This document shows positions 23,996 to 60,823 of a stretch of DNA of 64,000 nucleotides, in pieces. Numbering within the stretch: position 1 is the first letter of the stretch; every line of letters begins with the position of its first letter. The notes under the pieces were generated by a model. The model was not told the origin of the DNA. It did no database searches and saw nothing but the letters and a program-made list of their open reading frames with translations. The translations under genes and the position numbers were made by a program. Origin of the DNA: Escherichia coli (GTDB lineage Bacteria > Pseudomonadota > Gammaproteobacteria > Enterobacterales > Enterobacteriaceae); NCBI RefSeq assembly GCF_050920415.1, contig NZ_CP169309.1; one strand, given 5' to 3'.

Positions 23996-24571
23996 CTACG
24001 GCAGTGCTGGCCATTCAATATCCTGTGCAGTTGACGTATCAACACGGTTCAGCAACACCCGATACTTTTTCCAGGCTTCCAGCAATGAGGTTTCTTCCTC
24101 CGTTGCGATTTCCAGATCTACAGCATCCTGAAGTGGCGCAATATGCTCACTGGCTACCTGCATCAGGCTGTTTTTTGTTTCTTCCGCCTCTCGGATCCGG
24201 AACAGTTTTTCTGCTTCTGCATCTTTCACCCAGGCTGTGCCGTTCCACTTCTGAAACTCCCCTTCCGGCGATAACCAGGTAACATTTTCCGGTAACGGAC
24301 CGAGTTCAGAAATAAATAACGCGTCCCCTGACGCTACGTCATAAACCGTTTTACCCCGATGGTCTTCAACGAGATGCCACGATGCCTTATCACTGTTGAA
24401 AACAGCCACAAAGCCAGCAGGAATATCTGGTGGTGCAATATCGGTACTGTTTGCTGGCAGACCTGTATGAGGCGGAATATATGCGTCACCTTCACCAATA
24501 AATTCATTAGTTCCGGCCAGCAGATTATAAATTTTTATGGTCCGTGGTTGTTCACTCATTCTGAATGCCAT
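23996..24571 (-). CDS. tfa: Tail fibre assembly protein Tfa
   Basis: 191-aa ORF immediately downstream of stf; lambda Tfa-like. Confidence 0.9.
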
Positions 24572-53541: not shown

Positions 53542-53704
53542 GATTCCTCCTTGCTGCCAGTCGCAACCATTTTTTATCAACCAGGCTAGCGGTATATCCG
53601 AGCAGTGTTGGTATTTCGGATGGCTTCAGCTCAGGCTTACGCTTACGACGATTTGGTACTCTGTAGATGTGTCCGTTCATGACACGAATAAGCGGTGTAG
53701 CCAT
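53534..53704 (-). CDS. ninE: NinE
   Basis: Hand-translated 56-aa [59 protein letters not shown]; overlaps ybcN stop and ybcO start. Confidence 0.85.
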   Translation of the reverse strand: MATPLIRVMNGHIYRVPNRRKRKPELKPSEIPTLLGYTASLVDKKWLRLAARRNHG

Positions 53705-54159
53705 TACGCCTCCTGCTTGTCGCGCAGCAGCTGGAACTCGCAGCTCTGCGGAATAGTCAGGTGGCAGCCAATATTCATCGCCCAGGCTTCAACCTTACAC
53801 AGGAAGACATACATCTCTCCGGTATCAAGATCGGAAGTATGGCGTAACGACTGGATAGTAGTGATTTCGCCGGTTACGACATCAACCAGGTCCTTGGTTT
53901 CATAACCGAGGTATGTGTGTTTGAGAGCATCTTTTACCCAAGCTGGAGTGGCGAACGTTTTACCCCTGCTGATGAGGTATTCACTGATTTCGCTGTACCA
54001 CATGTGGCTGAGTGCATTCTGGGAAAGACTGCGTTTCTCACGCCACGGTTTAAGCACCATGCGAAAGCATTTGCCTTCCTCCAGATAAGGCTGGATCTGC
54101 TGGCCGATAGCGGTGAAGTTACCACGATGCAATTTGATGCCGTCTTGTGGGAGGTTCAC
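53704..54159 (-). CDS. ybcN: YbcN (NinB-position protein)
   Basis: 151-aa ORF with GTG start, matching DLP12 YbcN length and position. Confidence 0.85.
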
Positions 54160-54189
54160 GCTTCACCTCCGCAGAGGTCAAACGCTGGA

Positions 54190-54277
54190 TGCAAAAAATC
54201 GCAGGTGCATCTCTGCATCTGTGAAGGGAGAAGAGAGTTTGGATTGTATGTGCGCATAAACGTCCCCGTTTAGCGCA
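54190..54277. repeat. 88-bp direct repeat, copy 1 (upstream of ybcN)
   Basis: About 93% identical to 56124-56211; contains hairpin GCGCATAAACG-TCCCC-GTTTAGCGC. Confidence 0.85.
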
Positions 54278-54353
54278 GAAGTCACCGGAGTTGTTCAAGC
54301 TCCAATGGCATGATTATGGCTGGTTGATTATTGGAAATCAAATGTGCTGAAAA

Positions 54354-54863
54354 TTAGTCTGCCAAGTCTTCCTCAGTCGCAACTGGGTAATTCCAAATAT
54401 CAAAAAAAGCTATAGCCTCCTGCCATTTGCTCCATAAGTTATCAAGTACTTGTGTAGGTTCCGTACTTTTAAAAACAGAATCAGCCGCATCACCGTTATG
54501 AACTTCCTCGTACAGTTCCATTATTAGCAGATTAACAAAGTACTGTTTCAACATTAATGCCTGATTACCTTCTTTCTGCTGGCTATCCTGCTTGATGAGC
54601 TCCATCGCCCGTACTAGGCACCTGATGATATCCGCTGCATCATTAACGCTCCATTCAGATCCGCGCTTATCTTTAGCTGATGAATTGGCTCTCTCAGCGC
54701 AAGCCTTTAAAGACTCATAAAGGTAAACTCTATTTTGTAGCTGCAGCGCTTTTTTTGACGTGCACCAACTTGCAAGCGCCGACCCCGCTGCGGCTAATGT
54801 GCCAAACGCAGAAATGCCTGCTGCTATTGCACTTAAGTCGGCACTGTCAAAGTTCCACATCAT
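54354..54863 (-). CDS. Hypothetical 169-aa protein with hydrophobic N-terminal segment
   Basis: Low-GC ORF; N-terminal hydrophobic stretch LSAIAAGISAFGTLAAAGSALASW; no recognised domain. Confidence 0.5.
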   Translation of the reverse strand: MMWNFDSADLSAIAAGISAFGTLAAAGSALASWCTSKKALQLQNRVYLYESLKACAERANSSAKDKRGSEWSVNDAADIIRCLVRAMELIKQDSQQKEGNQALMLKQYFVNLLIMELYEEVHNGDAADSVFKSTEPTQVLDNLWSKWQEAIAFFDIWNYPVATEEDLAD

Positions 54864-55098
54864 CGTTACACCTTATATAAACACCCCTCAGTAATATCCA
54901 ATAAGGTATGTGAACAATCAATATAATTTATATCCGTATCGGCACATAGCGATTTTAATGCTACTGATAATGGTATCTTTTAGATTATATCGTCCAGTTC
55001 CAGTACCCGTATTTTATGAAATGGACTCGCACATTACCAAAAAAAATGCCAGCACTTCCGTCATCGCAGAATGCTGGCAGTATTTCTAACTAGTGACT

Positions 55099-55707
55099 TT
55101 ATTGCAACAGATTCTGACGGAAATATGGTAACACACGACTCCACTTATCATCCTGCCACGGTTGGAATTTTACATGCGCCGTTTCTCTGGCAAGGATTTC
55201 TCGCGCCCTGTTGAGTATCCGAGGATATTCTTGTTCGATTGAAGTGAATCTACCTGCTTCGCGATGCTCTGCGACCTGAAGAAGGGGCGTAACGTTCTGG
55301 CAGGCGGTTAACATCGTATCACTTGCTCGCCATAACCAGGCGAGTGTGCAAAGTTCGTTATCAGTGAATTGTTTTGTGATTGGGGATTGTTGAACTTCTC
55401 GATCGAGAATATCCAGAACCCAGCGGCGGAATTCTTTGGCCACAGGAGTACGAGCAAACATGGCGATCAAATGGGCTCCGCGAAGGCTAAATACTCGAGA
55501 CTCCTGCATTCCACGAGGGGTGGTCACTTTGACCACCCTTGTCATCATATCTGTGAATTCATCTGAGTGCCGAGAGTAAATGCGCTGAACTGCTTTATCG
55601 TCCGCATATTCCAGTGCTAAACCAACTTCAGTGGCAGTAAGCCAAATTCTGTTATTGTGGCAAATCGGGGTAAACGTCGTTTTGTGGAATGCTAATTGAG
55701 TAGTCAT
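55099..55707 (-). CDS. Bro-N domain phage antirepressor-like protein
   Basis: 202-aa ORF; N-terminal region (HNNRIWLTATEVGLALEY...RVFSLRGAHLIAM) resembles Bro-N. Confidence 0.7.
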   Translation of the reverse strand: MTTQLAFHKTTFTPICHNNRIWLTATEVGLALEYADDKAVQRIYSRHSDEFTDMMTRVVKVTTPRGMQESRVFSLRGAHLIAMFARTPVAKEFRRWVLDILDREVQQSPITKQFTDNELCTLAWLWRASDTMLTACQNVTPLLQVAEHREAGRFTSIEQEYPRILNRAREILARETAHVKFQPWQDDKWSRVLPYFRQNLLQ

Positions 55708-56123
55708 AGTATCACCTCATCAGGTTAACCATCACCACCAACGACGCCAATCGACTGGTGGTGAACTGTGTAAGGTTGGCGTAACCGGCTACTCAAACCC
55801 GGCGCTTCCGAAGAAGCCCTCACACAGCCCACCATAATTTGGGCATAGCCGTGCTTAGCGCACAAAAAAACCGCTTAACGCGGTATGCGTTGAGTAGTAT
55901 CCCGGGACGCCAATCCCGTGTGCCGATTTTGCGGCAACGCACAGAATATAGCGCCGGATAAATCATGTCGTCAACCCCAGTAAATGGACACCATGATGAT
56001 CACAGCCATAGCTGCTACAACAGTTACAACTACCTCAGGCCAAAACATAACGATTTCCATATCACCTTTAGCCGCCAGACGAATAGAGACTCCCAATTCT
56101 GGCTGTCGAAGTAAAACACCGAA

Positions 56124-56211
56124 TGTAAAAAATCGTAGGTGCATTTCTGCATCTGTGAATGGAGATGAGAGTTTGGATTGTGTGTGCGCATAAACGTCCC
56201 CGTTTAGCGCA
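56124..56211. repeat. 88-bp direct repeat, copy 2 (upstream of the Bro-N module)
   Basis: Near-identical to 54190-54277 with 6 mismatches. Confidence 0.85.
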
Positions 56212-56519
56212 ACCCCACCACCGGGTGTTCAGGCCGACAGTAACTATATTATTCCCTACTGATTTTTGAAAATCAAAGGTCTTTATACGTCACACGAGAG
56301 CAAATATTTCCGAAGAAGAAACCTTTCGCCTTGAAAGGATAAAGAGTTCATTTCATAAATTGAAATATTCAATAAGAATATTGCAAAAAATGAAATTATT
56401 TACTAGCGAGTCTATCTAACTGATAATTATGAAGATTGTAAGCGGTAGCAATCACCCGCATACACATTGAACAGGATTTAATACAAAACGTCTTAAATTG
56501 TCCGTAAGGAATAGCACGA

Positions 56520-58022
56520 ATGACTCAAACTCCTCTATTACTTGCAATCATATTTTTATTGGTTGTTCTTGTTCTTTATATAGCTGCAATCAAACGCATC
56601 AAAAAAATACAATTAGAATTAAGTGATAGCAATCAAAAAAATGAAGAATACAAATCTCGCTTTGCAGATTATTTTAATGTAGAAGAAGAATGTAAGAAGC
56701 TTATTGAGAAAACAGAGCAAGAATGCTCCATAATAAAAGAAGAATCCCTAAAAGTAAAAGAAAATGCCAATAATGAACTAACAAACACCATTGAAAAAAT
56801 GGATGGTATCAATAAACAAATCCAAGAGCTAAGAAGAACTTATAAAGAGAAGAAAGAAATATATGATAAACTAGTAAGGCAAATTTCTATTTATTCAGAA
56901 GATGTTGAGCTAGCCGAACTAGGATTTTACGAACCTCATTTTAATTTTGAAGATTCAGAGCAATTTAAAAACAAAATAAAATCCATCAGGGATGAACAGA
57001 AATTAATGCTGCGGGATAAAACCCACTCTGGCGCAGTATATTGTACAACCCAATGGACTGTTGAAGGCTCTCGAGCAGAGGGTAAAAAAATGACAGACAG
57101 AAATATCAGGCTAACTACTAGAGCATTTAATAATGAATGTGATGCTGCAATTAGCAATTGCACGTGGAAAAACATCACTAAAATGGAAGAACGCATCACA
57201 AAGGCATTTGAGGCCATAAATAAACTAAACGAGCAAAATCACATATATATAAACACTAAATACCTCAATAAAAAACTTGAGGAATTGTGGCTTACCCATG
57301 AATATCGTGAGCAAAAACAGAAAGAAAAAGAAGAACAGGCAGAAATAAGGGCACAAATGAGAGAGGAGGAGCGTGCACAACGAGAAATAGAAAAGGCCAT
57401 GCAAGACGCAGAGGCAGAAGAGCGCCGTTATAAAAAAGCAATTGAAGCTGCAAGAAAGGAAATGGAAAAAGTTACTGGTGACATGAAGCAGCGCCTCGAA
57501 AATCGCATTGCCGAACTAGAACAGAGTTTGTCGCAGGCTGAATCAAAGCATCAAAGAGCATTATCCATGGCACAACAAACCAAACAAGGTCATGTTTATA
57601 TTATTTCGAACATAGGTTCTTTTGGGGAGAATGTTTATAAAATAGGCATGACACGACGTCTTGATCCGCAAGACCGTGTAAATGAGCTCGGTGATGCATC
57701 TGTTCCTTTTATTTTTGATGTACATGCCATGATTTATTCGGAGGACGCTCCATCATTAGAAAAAAAACTACATGATGTCTTCGATAAAAAGAGAGTCAAT
57801 CTTGTAAATCGTAGAAAAGAGTTTTTCTATGTTACTCTGGATGAGATCAAAGAAGCTGTTAAAAAACACTCTGATTCAGAAATTGAATTTATTGAGACAG
57901 CAGTCGCAAAAGACTTTAATGAGTCATTGGCTATTCGTAATCATGAAAATAAAAAAAGTGACAACAGCAACTCATCAATTATACCTGAGCGAAAAACCCC
58001 AGAGTTTGCAGATGCAATTTAA
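56520..58022 (+). CDS. Membrane-anchored coiled-coil protein with C-terminal T5orf172 (GIY-YIG-like) domain; DUF4041-like architecture
   Basis: 500-aa ORF, AAGGA 8 nt before the ATG; N-terminal TM helix (LLLAIIFLLVVLVLYIAAI), long K/E/Q-rich coiled-coil, C-terminal block VYIISNIGSFGENVYKIGMTRRLDPQDRVNELGDASVPF...LEKKLHDVFDKKRVN. Opposite strand to all neighbours. Confidence 0.7.
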   Translation: MTQTPLLLAIIFLLVVLVLYIAAIKRIKKIQLELSDSNQKNEEYKSRFADYFNVEEECKKLIEKTEQECSIIKEESLKVKENANNELTNTIEKMDGINKQIQELRRTYKEKKEIYDKLVRQISIYSEDVELAELGFYEPHFNFEDSEQFKNKIKSIRDEQKLMLRDKTHSGAVYCTTQWTVEGSRAEGKKMTDRNIRLTTRAFNNECDAAISNCTWKNITKMEERITKAFEAINKLNEQNHIYINTKYLNKKLEELWLTHEYREQKQKEKEEQAEIRAQMREEERAQREIEKAMQDAEAEERRYKKAIEAARKEMEKVTGDMKQRLENRIAELEQSLSQAESKHQRALSMAQQTKQGHVYIISNIGSFGENVYKIGMTRRLDPQDRVNELGDASVPFIFDVHAMIYSEDAPSLEKKLHDVFDKKRVNLVNRRKEFFYVTLDEIKEAVKKHSDSEIEFIETAVAKDFNESLAIRNHENKKSDNSNSSIIPERKTPEFADAI

Positions 58023-58270: not shown

Positions 58271-58573
58271 TCACAGCAAGTTTAAGTTCATATCTCCATA
58301 CACTGCCAACACTCGTTTCATCGCGGCACTCTGGCGACACTCCTTGAAAATCAGATTCGTGCTCACCTTTCCTTCCCGTTCTTCCCTGGTAGCGAACCGG
58401 TAATACACCGTTCGCCAGACCTTACCATCAACGACCAAGATTCCTGCCCGTGCCATTTTAGCCGCAGCCTGATTTATACTGGTTACTGTTGCGCCTGTTA
58501 CCGCAGCAACGTCCTGCGCACAGAAGCTCTTATGCGTCCCCAGGTAATGAATAATTGCCTCTTTGCCCGTCAT
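58271..58573 (-). CDS. ren: Ren
   Basis: 100-aa ORF matching lambda Ren (MTGKEAIIHYLGTH.SFCA.DVAA.TGATVTSINQAAAKMARAG...). Confidence 0.9.
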   Translation of the reverse strand: MTGKEAIIHYLGTHKSFCAQDVAAVTGATVTSINQAAAKMARAGILVVDGKVWRTVYYRFATREEREGKVSTNLIFKECRQSAAMKRVLAVYGDMNLNLL

Positions 58574-59271
58574 ACAGTTGCTCCTTTCAGTCCGAACTTC
58601 GCTTTGATTTCTGCGATCTTCGCCAGAGCCTGTGCACGATTTAGAGGTCTACCGCCCATGACAGGAAGTTGTTTTACTGGTTCAGGTATCGCCTCACCAC
58701 GGTTAATTCGCGCGGTCATACAAGTCAGTTCATCGGCAGCCTTGCGCCGTAATTCCGCATCAGTAAGCGCATTGGCCCGCATGTTCTGATACAGGTTGGT
58801 AACCAGCCAGTAGTGCGCGTTTGATTTCCACGGATAAGACTCTGCATCTGGATACAGGCCACGTTTCCGGCAATACTCGTAAACCATATCAACCAGCTCG
58901 CTGGCGTTTGGCAGCCCGGCGGTAACGGATGCTTCTTCCCGGCACCAGGCAACAAACTGCCCGGGTGATGGCAGGAATGGTCGATTCTGCCGACGGGCTA
59001 CGCGCATTCCTGCGTCAACCTGTTCCATCGTGGTGATCCCGTTTTCCCGGAAAGCCAGAACCCACTGGCGGCGGATTTCGTTCAGTTCGTTCTGGTCCCG
59101 GTTAGCCAGGCTCGCCGGGAAAGTTGCCAGTAACTGGCTGAACACACCATTGATGATCTGCGCTACCTGTTGTACCTGCGGCTTTTCGTCGTACTGTTCC
59201 GGCATGTTGTTGGCGATCCGGCGCATCTGCTCACGGTCAAAGTTAACCATCTGTGCGGCGATGTTTTTCAT
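58570..59271 (-). CDS. P: Replication protein P (helicase loader)
   Basis: 233-aa ORF near-identical to lambda P (MKNIAAQMVNFDREQMRRIANNMPEQYDEKPQVQQ...). Confidence 0.96.
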   Translation of the reverse strand: MKNIAAQMVNFDREQMRRIANNMPEQYDEKPQVQQVAQIINGVFSQLLATFPASLANRDQNELNEIRRQWVLAFRENGITTMEQVDAGMRVARRQNRPFLPSPGQFVAWCREEASVTAGLPNASELVDMVYEYCRKRGLYPDAESYPWKSNAHYWLVTNLYQNMRANALTDAELRRKAADELTCMTARINRGEAIPEPVKQLPVMGGRPLNRAQALAKIAEIKAKFGLKGATV

Positions 59272-60197
59272 AAATCCACCCCGTAAATCCAGTCAGTGTT
59301 TGTCAGGTCGAGTTTTGATTTTCCGGCTATCACGCCAGCCTGTTGCTTGTTACGGTTGATTTCGAGTTGGGTCCACTTGTCGCGGAGTTTGGCCGGACTT
59401 AGCACGTTACCGGACCAGAAGTTGTCCTGGCATGCCCAGCGGAACAGCACGCACATGTCGCGGTGGTTACGGCCGTCACGTTCACGCATCAGGCGGATAT
59501 CGTTAGCCCACCCTGCAAAATTCGGTTTTCTGGCTGATGGCGCGATGGTCTTCACCATGTCAAACATCCACTCTGCGGCGGTCAGGTCTTCTGCTGTCCC
59601 CCACCTGCTGCCGCTCTGAATTGCAGCATCTGGTTTCTCCACAGGAAGATCGTTTTCTGGTTGGTCAGAGGATTCGCCAGAATTCTCGGACGAAAAAGGT
59701 TTTATATTGTCTTTTGTTAGTTTGTCTTTTGTGTTTACCTGATTCGGGTAAGTGCCTTTACCTGATTTGGGTAAACTTTTCTTACCTGATTCAGGTAAAT
59801 TTACCTCTTTCAGGTAAACTTTATTTTTCTTACCTGATTCGGGTAATGTTGACCATTCACTGACCACATTATTAATGCCGATATTCCGCCCGCTCTGAAT
59901 AAAAATCCCACGCTTTACCAGAACACTTTTTGCAGCAGAACACTTGTGCGGCAATATCCCGGTCAACTCGGAAAGTTGCTCGTTGCTCACCCAATCCAGT
60001 TTTTTATTAAAGCCATATGTTTTGCGCATGACAGCCAGGAAGACCAGAAGCTGGTGCTGTGTTAATCCGGCCAGCATCACAGCTTCCAGCAACTCATTTG
60101 CAATGCGCGTATAACCATCATCGAGATCTGCCACGCGCGGCTCCTTTTGTGCCGCATCCGGCACTGGAAAATTGAATATCTCAGCAGTGTTTGCCAT
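59268..60197 (-). CDS. O: Replication initiator O (different iteron specificity from lambda)
   Basis: Start chosen at MANTAEIFNF (GGAGG 5 nt upstream); N-terminal domain lambda O-like (VADLDDGY...LRKTYG.NK), C-terminus P-interacting; iterons inside. Confidence 0.9.
   Translation of the reverse strand: MANTAEIFNFPVPDAAQKEPRVADLDDGYTRIANELLEAVMLAGLTQHQLLVFLAVMRKTYGFNKKLDWVSNEQLSELTGILPHKCSAAKSVLVKRGIFIQSGRNIGINNVVSEWSTLPESGKKNKVYLKEVNLPESGKKSLPKSGKGTYPNQVNTKDKLTKDNIKPFSSENSGESSDQPENDLPVEKPDAAIQSGSRWGTAEDLTAAEWMFDMVKTIAPSARKPNFAGWANDIRLMRERDGRNHRDMCVLFRWACQDNFWSGNVLSPAKLRDKWTQLEINRNKQQAGVIAGKSKLDLTNTDWIYGVDL
59736..59846. repeat. Replication origin iterons: 4 copies of TACCTGATTCGGGTAA spaced 23-24 bp, plus one degenerate copy
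   Basis: Copies at 59736, 59759, 59783 and 59831 with a degenerate copy near 59802; each has internal dyad symmetry; AT-rich block follows; inside the O gene as in ori-lambda. Confidence 0.85.
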
Positions 60198-60283
60198 AAT
60201 TCCTCCCGCAATGAGTGTGTTACGATTTGCACCTGAAAGTCGGTTCTGTTCCCGCAGACCGACTTTCGCCATTTCTGAACCTG

Positions 60284-60823
60284 TCATATTGCCCCCAGCA
60301 TGGTGGTCACCATCGCCATTAATGGACCAGCCAGATCCGGGTCCACACGAAACATCGACACAATACCTTCACTCATTTCCTTCAGTTTCTGGTGGCGTGG
60401 TGCGTTGAGAATGACAGCCTGTTTTGCCTCACTGAGTTCCTTTTCCATTTCAGCCAACCGAGTCATGAAGCTATCCTGCTCAACCAGGTAACCGCGATAT
60501 TCCAGCGGTAGTACCGCCAGAATTGCCGGGGTCAGTTCACGCACGTTATTTCGGTATTTTTCAGAATCGAATTTGTTATCGAGGAAGCGGAACAGCTTCT
60601 GGCGTGCACGGCTGACATCATCAGGGAAATCGATGGTGCCGTCGCCCTGCTCCCGATACTCATTCACAATGAGTGCGGCAACGACATCCTGATTATCTAC
60701 AGCCGACCAGGCGCGGACGGCATCACGGATTTTTTCGTGGCCTGGAGCTTGTTTTGTTTGAGAACGATTTATCACCGCAGTCGGAATAAATCCGCTAGTC
60801 TGTTGGTATGTAAGTGGTTGCAT
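60284..60823 (-). CDS. YdaT-like protein in the cII position
   Basis: 179-aa ORF downstream of cro-like gene; segment LTPAILAVLPLEYRGYL resembles the Rac YdaT motif IPAILAILPRELR (recalled from memory). Confidence 0.5.
   Translation of the reverse strand: MQPLTYQQTSGFIPTAVINRSQTKQAPGHEKIRDAVRAWSAVDNQDVVAALIVNEYREQGDGTIDFPDDVSRARQKLFRFLDNKFDSEKYRNNVRELTPAILAVLPLEYRGYLVEQDSFMTRLAEMEKELSEAKQAVILNAPRHQKLKEMSEGIVSMFRVDPDLAGPLMAMVTTMLGAI

Follow-up and report, generated by a model that had tools for sequence, protein, structure and literature searches.

A duplicated nin-operon leader brackets an isrK-C4-ant cassette in a DLP12-type prophage of Escherichia coli

Organization of the prophage region

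A stretch of 64,000 nucleotides from Escherichia coli (NCBI RefSeq assembly GCF_050920415.1, contig NZ_CP169309.1), referred to throughout as the window, contains a region matching a DLP12-type prophage of E. coli strain 118UI. Within it two near-identical direct repeats bracket an inserted cassette between the ren gene and the first of the nin genes. The repeat is the middle of a leader that heads the nin-Q operon, complete in copy 1 (54156-54341, minus strand) and partial in copy 2 (56108-56276, minus strand), and this duplicated leader probably serves as a homology arm, with the cassette being exchanged by recombination inside it.

All genes around the repeat are read from the minus strand, the PD-Lambda-1 gene alone lying on the plus strand. 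Following transcription, one meets O, P and ren (58271-60287), a gene of 500 amino acids on the plus strand (56520-58022), copy 2, a 57-amino-acid open reading frame (ORF), isrK, a C4 antisense RNA, the antirepressor gene ant, a gene for a 169-amino-acid protein, copy 1 and ybcN. The 500-amino-acid product is a PD-Lambda-1/DUF4041 defence protein (PADLOC, E=1.9e-198), and its gene is the upstream flank that is still linked to the 5' half of copy 2 in relatives with a single copy. ybcN (53704-54159, minus strand) opens the nin-Q operon behind copy 1 and is followed by ninE, ybcO, rusA, ylcG and quuD; its product falls within the NinB/Orf family by PHROG match (phrog_72) and has been treated as an Orf-family protein (PMC4118853). 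Phage PhiR26_1 is identical to the window over the stretches compared, namely the repeat copies with their flanks and the isrK/C4 region.

A repeat search returned one direct-repeat family, with members of 104 nt at 54174-54277 and 56108-56211 (both minus strand), 89% identity and a spacing of 1934. The 88 nt cores of the two members (54190-54277 and 56124-56211) differ at exactly 6 positions, as the initial annotation had stated, and the 104 nt versions at 11. The longest run of perfect identity is 29 nt, formed by the first 29 nt of the element, which correspond to the hairpin that had also been noted in each copy (hairpin 2 below) and which reads GCGC-TAAACG-GGGA-CGTTTA-T-GCGC on the transcribed minus strand of both. 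Weaker but recognizable homology reaches 54341 and 56276, about 65 nt beyond the repeat in the upstream direction of the minus strand, and takes in a second hairpin and promoter-like -35/-10 hexamers. Because a 21 nt core (CACAGATGCAGARATRCACCT) occurs twice in the window against 0.01 occurrences expected from shuffles, and the BLAST E-value of copy 1 against copy 2 is about 1e-35, a chance repeat was rejected. A target-site duplication of a transposon or insertion sequence (IS) was rejected as well. Such an event is recognized by a duplication of 2-14 bp on either side of an element that has a transposase and terminal inverted repeats, whereas the repeat is 104-170 nt long and 89% identical and no transposase lies between the copies.

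Anatomy and conservation of the leader

The promoter-leader unit measures about 185 nt from the -35 hexamer to the stop codon of a mini-ORF. In copy 1 (all features on the minus strand) the predicted -35 TTGATT (54336-54341) and -10 CATAAT (54313-54318) are separated by a 17 bp spacer and followed by hairpin 1 (54281-54309; loop CTTGAACAA) and hairpin 2 (54251-54277), which holds a Shine-Dalgarno (SD) sequence in its GGGA loop and an AUG in its 3' arm. This AUG opens the mini-ORF (54156-54257), a 33-amino-acid frame annotated as ylcH or orf33, the stop codon of which overlaps the ybcN start (GTGA). The annotated frame overlaps the element in K-12, in strain 118UI and in phage 82, in each case directly before ybcN/orf151. 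Folding of copy 1 and of the phage HK639 leader places hairpin 3, which ends in a U-run (54188-54219 in copy 1), inside the ORF, and hairpin 4 (54157-54185) over the SD and start codon of ybcN/ninB. The core lies 64 nt before the ybcN start. The peptide contains no run of regulatory codons, only a conserved Cys-Thr-Cys. Against shuffled sequences the leader RNA folds with z -3.25 in copy 1 and z -4.84 in HK639. Copy 1 has each of the features of a nin leader that were looked for (position, promoter hexamers, hairpins 1 and 2, mini-ORF overlap and hairpin 4) and represents the canonical form of the leader ahead of the first nin gene.

The -35 hexamer falls within a palindrome, TTGAT-N8-ATCAA, at 54324-54341 and again at 56260-56276 (minus strand). 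A TGAT..ATCA palindrome across this region is kept in 115 of the 123 unique leaders described below and is not found in the homologue in Salmonella phage Gifsy-1; it could represent a candidate operator.

Of 5,426 complete E. coli genomes, 2,755 contain the 104 nt element, K-12 (DLP12) included, usually as a single copy and always directly ahead of ybcN. It is also present in phages 82, HK639 and HK225 and in Enterobacter and Klebsiella phages, with only 27 phage records containing it. Searching IMG/VR with the core motif yielded 120 stretches, and all loci gathered at that stage, mostly IMG/VR contigs, comprised 131 copies. The gene after the element is of the YbcN type in 70 of these, of the lambda-NinB type in 45, isrK-ant in 5 and Q-like in 2, with the nin-type genes (115/131) standing at a fixed offset of 61 or 64 nt. 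The element could have been a common sequence found at unrelated loci; it proved to be common, in half of E. coli genomes, but tied to one specific kind of locus. No copy was detectable by BLAST in lambda, the record of which has no terminator annotated between ren and ninB. Rfam covariance models gave no match over either repeat copy at E<=5, and a full-text literature search on ylcH/ybcN brought up YbcN as an Orf-family protein but no account of the leader.

Anatomy counts were made on 123 unique copies. Conservation starts abruptly at the -35-like hexamer and extends to the start of the nin gene. The TTGATT -35 is present in 95/123 copies, the CATAAT -10 in 83/123 and the 17 bp spacer in 110/123. 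Hairpin 1 forms in 116/123 copies through 58 distinct sequences, with a variable stem and the loop CCUGAACAA or CCUGAACAC. Of its 11 pairs, 9 show compensatory double changes, and the fraction of paired cells is 90.7% as compared with 32-46% when the partner is slid. Hairpin 2 forms in all 123 copies through 13 distinct sequences in five stem classes, its GGGA loop (120/123) being the Shine-Dalgarno sequence and its 3' arm carrying the AUG or GUG of the mini-ORF. The mini-ORF is 31-33 amino acids long in 115/123, and in 118/123 its stop and the following start codon overlap (ATGA or GTGA). For the hairpin and covariation tests each sequence was folded individually and a hand-written structure was used for hairpins 1 and 3, which jointly gave a covariation score of 0.226 against at most 0.06 in slid controls. 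RNAalifold on a plain MAFFT alignment of 111 copies was set aside, as the five stem classes of hairpin 2 were misaligned. Judged by pairing and covariation, the conserved leader is a structured, covarying RNA unit common to E. coli and Salmonella phages.

The partial leader and the inserted cassette

Copy 2 retains a -35 TTGATT (56271-56276) and a -10 AATAAT (56248-56253) with a 17 bp spacer, a hairpin 1 with wobble or compensated pairs (56215-56244; loop CCTGAACAC) and a hairpin 2 identical to that of copy 1 (56185-56211), all on the minus strand. Its homology to the leader starts at the -35 hexamer (56276) and stops about 50 nt past the core, inside the mini-ORF, the 5' part of which runs on into unrelated sequence as a 53-amino-acid ORF (56030-56191, minus strand). 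The site of hairpin 3 (56122-56153, minus strand) is weakened by two G-to-A changes, and hairpin 4 with its coupling to a downstream start codon is absent. Two further marks of a nin leader are missing: directly downstream lie the 57-amino-acid ORF and isrK instead of a NinB/Orf gene, and there is no overlapping ORF of 31-33 amino acids. By inspection, five of the six differences within the 88 nt core alter an amino acid. Upstream, copy 2 varies from one cassette lineage to another, and that of phage IdasGreatGrand is without the TTGATT palindrome. Because its ORF runs on to 53 amino acids and hairpin 4 is absent, copy 2 is considered a partial member; from its sequence features it is a 5' partial, partly decayed paralogue of the leader.

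The insert had been described as a two-gene module of a Bro-N antirepressor and a 169-amino-acid protein. Both genes are present, yet the insert also carries a 57-amino-acid ORF, isrK and a C4 RNA. The antirepressor Ant (55099-55707, minus strand; 202 amino acids) matches the PHROG anti-repressor Ant families and is publicly annotated as a P22AR C-terminal domain protein, the Bro-N label stemming from the initial annotation only. Upstream of ant and on the same strand, the C4 antisense RNA (55754-55839; RF01695, 74.8 bits against a threshold of 45) and isrK (55864-55936; RF01394, 58.7 bits against a threshold of 50) both score above the gathering cutoff. A sub-threshold c4-a1b1 match (RF03163) overlaps isrK, after which a terminator-like hairpin is found at 55870-55884. 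Just 5' of isrK lies TTGACG-18-TATATT (55945-55974, minus strand), the best promoter match in the region at 10/12 positions and at the position of PisrK in Gifsy-1 (PMC4825925). The 169-amino-acid protein (54354-54863, minus strand; phrog_1779) occupies a slot of variable cargo between ant and copy 1. The insert is, on these matches, an immI-like isrK-C4-ant unit of the Gifsy-1 isrK-orf45-anrP type together with a gene of unassigned function.

The 57-amino-acid ORF (phrog_4612; 55971-56144, minus strand) is of uncertain coding status. Its last 29 amino acids (MEIVMFWPEVVVTVVAAMAVIIMVSIYWG) form a hydrophobic peptide with an SD sequence and ATG of its own, and this peptide is kept in IdasGreatGrand and interrupted by an early stop in the copy of the O157-type prophage (L132). 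Coding is doubtful because amino-acid-altering codon changes (15-16) far exceed silent ones (4).

Single-copy relatives, cassette versions and cassettes without repeats

A synthetic junction made of the upstream flank of copy 2, one element and ybcN, without the cassette, was searched in the 5,426 complete E. coli genomes and matched in one piece in 46 of them, with a best identity of 98.7%. Three of the 46 were read in detail (L128-L130) and contain ren (or another gene), the DUF4041 gene, one element and ybcN. Their element is chimeric: the 5' part equals copy 2, the 3' part resembles copy 1, and the switch falls inside the shared 29 nt stretch, so that a copy-2-like 5' half sits in front of ybcN. 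Similarity blocks between the window and these loci end at 56108 and resume at 54277. Against IdasGreatGrand the similarity runs from 56211 to 55117 and resumes at 54345, and against K-12 it starts at 54342. No exact deletion derivative of the window prophage was found among the 5,426 genomes. On the ybcN side, identity between the window and the single-copy genomes is only about 94-97%, and no junction exceeds 98.7%, so these relatives are not recent deletion products of the window prophage.

The full two-copy arrangement is present in 111 genomes. Four cassette versions share the same bracket and differ in the cargo after ant: the 169-amino-acid gene of the window, a 119-amino-acid gene in IdasGreatGrand, a HEPN gene with a hypothetical gene in an O157-type prophage (spacing 2322) and an 83-amino-acid gene in two further loci (L079 and L048; spacing 1482). 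Among the copy-2 sequences, the 3' halves have derived substitutions in common and the 5' halves are different, as predicted by exchange inside the element. On the coincidence of breakpoints and the chimeric alleles, the element is a mosaic joint of homologous recombination.

Cassettes are also found without the bracket. More than 200 phage records, mostly of Stx-converting phages, carry an isrK/C4-like region at 60-80% identity without the element, and Stx2 phage 1717 has the module between ninE and roi, unaccompanied by such a repeat. Other forms are truncated from the ybcK side, having lost copy 2, isrK, C4 and half of ant and kept one copy of the element. Since isrK/C4/ant relatives exist without it, the element is to be counted as part of the nin leader, not as an end inherent to the cassette. 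In several E. coli prophages (L133-L135, 2488-2811) the recombinase gene ybcK abuts a 5'-truncated ant, the event that placed ybcK having removed copy 2, isrK and C4.

These comparisons bear on several proposals of the initial annotation. Copy 1 does occupy the ren/nin junction just ahead of ybcN, copy 2 does precede the insert, and the single-copy relatives without insert that were to be sought in other prophages exist in the 46 genomes. The idea of a duplicated module junction fits similarity blocks that break exactly at the repeat; the two halves of copy 2 have different relatives, however, so the junction is not one static scar. That cassettes without flanking repeats would speak against such a junction was foreseen, and the Stx phages and truncated forms are relatives of this kind; what they count against is the repeat as an intrinsic cassette end. 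Loss of the cassette by recombination between the copies agrees with the existence of single-copy alleles, but these are not deletion derivatives. By the minimal homology generally accepted for RecA-dependent recombination, precise loss by this route should be rare between copies whose perfect identity spans no more than 29 nt.

The ren-nin slot clearly acts as a hot spot for cargo, as judged from the genes it holds, which include emrE-ybcK-ybcL-ybcM (K-12), PD-Lambda-1 (the window), an HD-domain gene, an alpha/beta hydrolase gene, a HEPN gene and the ant cassette. In the IMG/VR contig IMGVR_UViG_2744054973_000003 (L062, 1755-4134, and L063), cargo genes of 378 and 189 amino acids lie behind a leader copy and the first ~32 codons of ybcN, and a complete leader-ybcN copy is present elsewhere on the same contig. 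This layout points to another duplication-linked insertion at the leader.

Comparison with known systems

In phage 82 (GenBank X92588, the record of its rus region) and in K-12 DLP12, the sequence that holds orf33/ylcH and precedes orf151 (ybcN) is the same as the leader, 94-97% identical. The phage 82 record of 1996 already marks a putative -35/-10, an inverted repeat labelled as a possible regulator-binding site (equal to hairpin 1), a ribosome binding site and orf33. It contains one copy, whereas the window has a second, partial copy before an inserted cassette. The covariation, the statistics on mini-ORF coupling and the part played as a recombination joint go beyond that record.

Gifsy-1 provides a parallel to both the leader and the cassette. 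At the start of its nin-Q operon, before antQ (L138, 36575-36675, minus strand), a homologous promoter, TTGACT-17-CATAAT, is followed by a hairpin, ACUGG-CCUGAACAA-CCAGU, and then by an SD/AUG hairpin. From the -10 box, transcription would be expected to start about 1,606 nt ahead of antQ, and an earlier study, as cited in PMC4825925, placed the antQ transcription start 1,600 nt upstream. This agreement gives good but indirect support, by analogy, to the conserved hexamers being a promoter and hairpin 1 lying at the 5' end of the RNA. Gifsy-1 lacks a ylcH mini-ORF, its SD/AUG hairpin being that of the first gene itself. The identical 101 nt of its leader also occur in Gifsy-2, with partial matches beside ninB in Salmonella phages SEN34 and SPN3UB. 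Rfam gave no match over the Gifsy-1 leader homologue at E<=0.1. Among described small RNAs (sRNAs), STnc2080 and STnc1380 of Gifsy-1 were rejected as leader transcripts because one adjoins a tRNA-Arg gene and the other lies about 30 kb off, and the prophage sRNAs of Tree et al. 2014 were rejected because they are located after PR'.

The Gifsy-1 isrK-orf45-anrP module (Hershko-Shalev et al. 2016, PMC4825925) resembles the insert in its isrK, its C4/STnc1160-like RNA and its AnrP-like antirepressor. In Gifsy-1, however, the cassette is located after Q and not before the nin genes, and no leader copies bracket it. Likewise, the immI region of P1/P7 (c4, icd, ant) shares a C4-family RNA upstream of an antirepressor gene and a1/b1-like targets, RF01695 scoring above and RF03163 below threshold in the window. 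The context here is lambdoid, with no icd homologue identified, and the likeness concerns the insert and not the repeat. RNA control of ant translation and antirepressor activity are known only from experiments in Gifsy-1 and P1 (PMC4825925).

The loop of hairpin 1 bears some resemblance to boxB of the lambda nut sites, a hairpin with a purine-rich loop. Both combine a stem of free sequence with a conserved purine-rich loop, here of 9 nt (CCUGAACAA/C) and containing CUGAA.A. They differ in that a 9 nt loop takes the place of the closed pentaloop, boxA is missing, the hairpin would lie at the 5' end of its own transcript and the loop is conserved across phages expected to have different N proteins. 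As such, the resemblance is put forward as a lead and not as a claim of membership.

Control by a leader ORF is exemplified by attenuators of the pyrBI type. The window leader is similar in its predicted layout, with an initiation region within a hairpin, a stop/start overlap, a masked SD sequence and a hairpin with a U-run inside the ORF, yet it lacks a run of regulatory codons. Translational coupling of orf45 to anrP is another example of such control (PMC4825925).

Lambdoid phages reportedly exchange modules at conserved sequences and carry insertion sites for morons, as is said to have been described by Susskind and Botstein, by Hendrix and by Juhala et al. 2000, concepts also cited in PMC4104026. 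The locus agrees with such mosaic junctions and morons in that similarity blocks break at a short conserved sequence and variable cargo fills a slot. It is set apart by the doubling of the junction in one genome and by the presence of occupied and empty alleles in public genomes.

Probable exchange at the leader and alternative explanations

Taken together, the chimeric single-copy alleles, the four cassette versions and the differing halves of copy 2 favour the duplicated nin-operon leader as a homology arm, the cassette being exchanged by recombination inside it; we assign this a probability of roughly 0.7. The nin leader is common to many otherwise different phages and would thereby provide an arm for swapping sequence on either side. 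A prophage with the order DUF4041-leader-ybcN would have recombined, within the 29 nt stretch of hairpin 2, with a donor carrying leader'-cassette-leader-ybcN, which is the most parsimonious history suggested by the alleles. The first duplication of the leader probably arose via illegitimate joins, judging from the IMG/VR contig with different cargo behind a leader and a truncated ybcN 5' end.

The leader itself would act as a promoter followed by a structured 5' RNA. Hairpin 2 would limit initiation at the mini-ORF, and ribosomes ending the mini-ORF would open hairpin 4 and thereby permit the ybcN/ninB start by translational coupling. Ribosomes crossing hairpin 3 may also block termination at its U-run, while the 5' hairpin probably stabilizes the transcript or binds some factor. 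In this model NinB/Orf synthesis, and possibly transcription past hairpin 3, would depend on translation of the mini-ORF.

Several points weigh against these interpretations. The cassette may have been gained or lost as far as extant sequences can show, and an active promoter in E. coli, translation of the mini-ORF and the position of the RNA 5' end are predictions. Copy-2 RNA folds no better than shuffles (z -1.14), and the start codon of its mini-ORF is lost in one lineage, reading ATA in phage IdasGreatGrand. The core motif was the search key, which makes both the invariance of the core and the lack of compensatory changes in hairpin 3 uninformative. The variable-stem palindrome of hairpin 1 was marked in 1996 as a possible regulator-binding DNA site; the covariation fits an RNA hairpin better, yet hairpin 1 may have a role at the DNA level.

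Copy 2 could have been kept as an active promoter-leader that puts the cassette under control of the nin-Q type, a reading compatible with exchange inside the leader that makes a stronger claim on copy 2. The initial annotation had likewise proposed a regulatory element reused before both units, which holds for copy 1 and only in part for copy 2. The -35/-10 with their 17 bp spacer, the compensatory or wobble pairs of hairpin 1 and the intact hairpin 2 would all suit such a function, copy 2 is found in all four cassette versions, the same 5' half heads ybcN in the single-copy relatives, and expression of AnrP raises antQ-operon RNA in Gifsy-1 (PMC4825925). However, isrK has a strong promoter-like site of its own, and in Gifsy-1 PisrK alone drives isrK-orf45-anrP (PMC4825925); the >200 mostly Stx phage records with isrK/C4/ant do without the element; and both the variable upstream parts of copy 2, including the missing palindrome in IdasGreatGrand, and the loss of hairpins 3-4, coupling, folding and in one lineage the AUG count against it. 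We regard this use of copy 2 as possible but tentative. A little less likely still is a passive duplication scar, produced once by two illegitimate joins between misaligned genomes and acting only in occasional precise deletion. Copy 2 does break off about 50 nt past the core as though at an arbitrary join, the IMG/VR contig has unrelated cargo behind a leader and truncated ybcN with a complete copy elsewhere, and single-copy alleles exist. Nevertheless, the copies have diverged by 11% and retain 29 nt of perfect identity, exact deletion products are missing among 5,426 genomes as against 111 with the full arrangement, and the different relatives of the 5' and 3' halves of copy 2 indicate later exchanges inside the element. 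Further reaching and rather doubtful is the proposal that the leader forms a portable and autonomous unit of control, representing a so far undescribed RNA family and comprising a promoter with an operator-like palindrome, a boxB-like loop (CCUGAACAA) read by a factor and a leader-ORF attenuator. Such a unit would give the nin-Q operon a route independent of pR and N, and its second copy would wire antirepressor and Q into one co-regulated loop feeding induction, for which the rise of antQ-operon RNA with AnrP in Gifsy-1 is the link.

Two other explanations concern the repeated sequence itself and both appear improbable. Were the copies paralogous small-protein genes conserved for the function of YlcH, the annotation of orf33/ylcH by PGAP and in the phage 82 record would be accounted for, as would a frame from start codon to core that is kept across three leader types despite indels and the 31-33-amino-acid ORF in 115/123 copies. 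Conservation at the protein level is hard to reconcile with five of six core differences altering an amino acid, 85 distinct peptides among 123 sequences, a different and longer C-terminus of the copy-2 ORF, a lineage without start codon and no match of the peptide to a PHROG family; the start codon and SD sequence always lie within a covarying hairpin, which suggests a regulatory mini-ORF instead. In the other explanation the highlighted hairpin would be a terminator of the tR2 type, placed before each unit. The location after ren does correspond to where the initial annotation places lambda tR2, and a terminator-like site was flagged in copy 1 (TGCAGAGATGCACCTGCG followed by ATTTTTT). Yet hairpin 2 is followed by ACAUACAAUCC with no U-run, its GGGA loop is an SD sequence and it encloses the ylcH AUG, so this assignment was abandoned. 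The flagged site is hairpin 3, a weak candidate with a 5 bp stem and a U-run that pairs with upstream A residues in the best fold; the U-run is interrupted (UUUUCU) in many relatives, and copy 2 was not flagged.

Significance of the locus

Much of what is found here belongs to kinds already known, namely the phage 82 orf33 region, the isrK-anrP and P1 immI modules, mosaic junctions and moron slots, and swapping of cassettes inside the leader is ordinary phage mosaicism. New are the presence of the leader twice at a locus for which the empty and the occupied allele can both be seen, and numerical evidence for a structured, covarying leader RNA. With both alleles, a crossover window of 29 nt and four cargo variants in one bracket, the locus offers a clean natural example of how lambdoid phages trade cargo. 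The structured leader is carried by about half of E. coli genomes and by Salmonella Gifsy phages, has no Rfam family and precedes the first gene of an operon ending in the late-gene antiterminator Q. If its promoter were active in lysogens, this would matter for the silencing or activation of cryptic prophage genes such as rusA and quuD. The leader RNA is the part most deserving of experiment, and the predictions are directly testable in PhiR26_1, a sequenced phage with E. coli K-12 MG1655 as its recorded host. Elsewhere in the window, far from the repeat, an IS009 RNA match (Rfam RF02111, 226.7 bits) is located at 24030-24228 on the minus strand.

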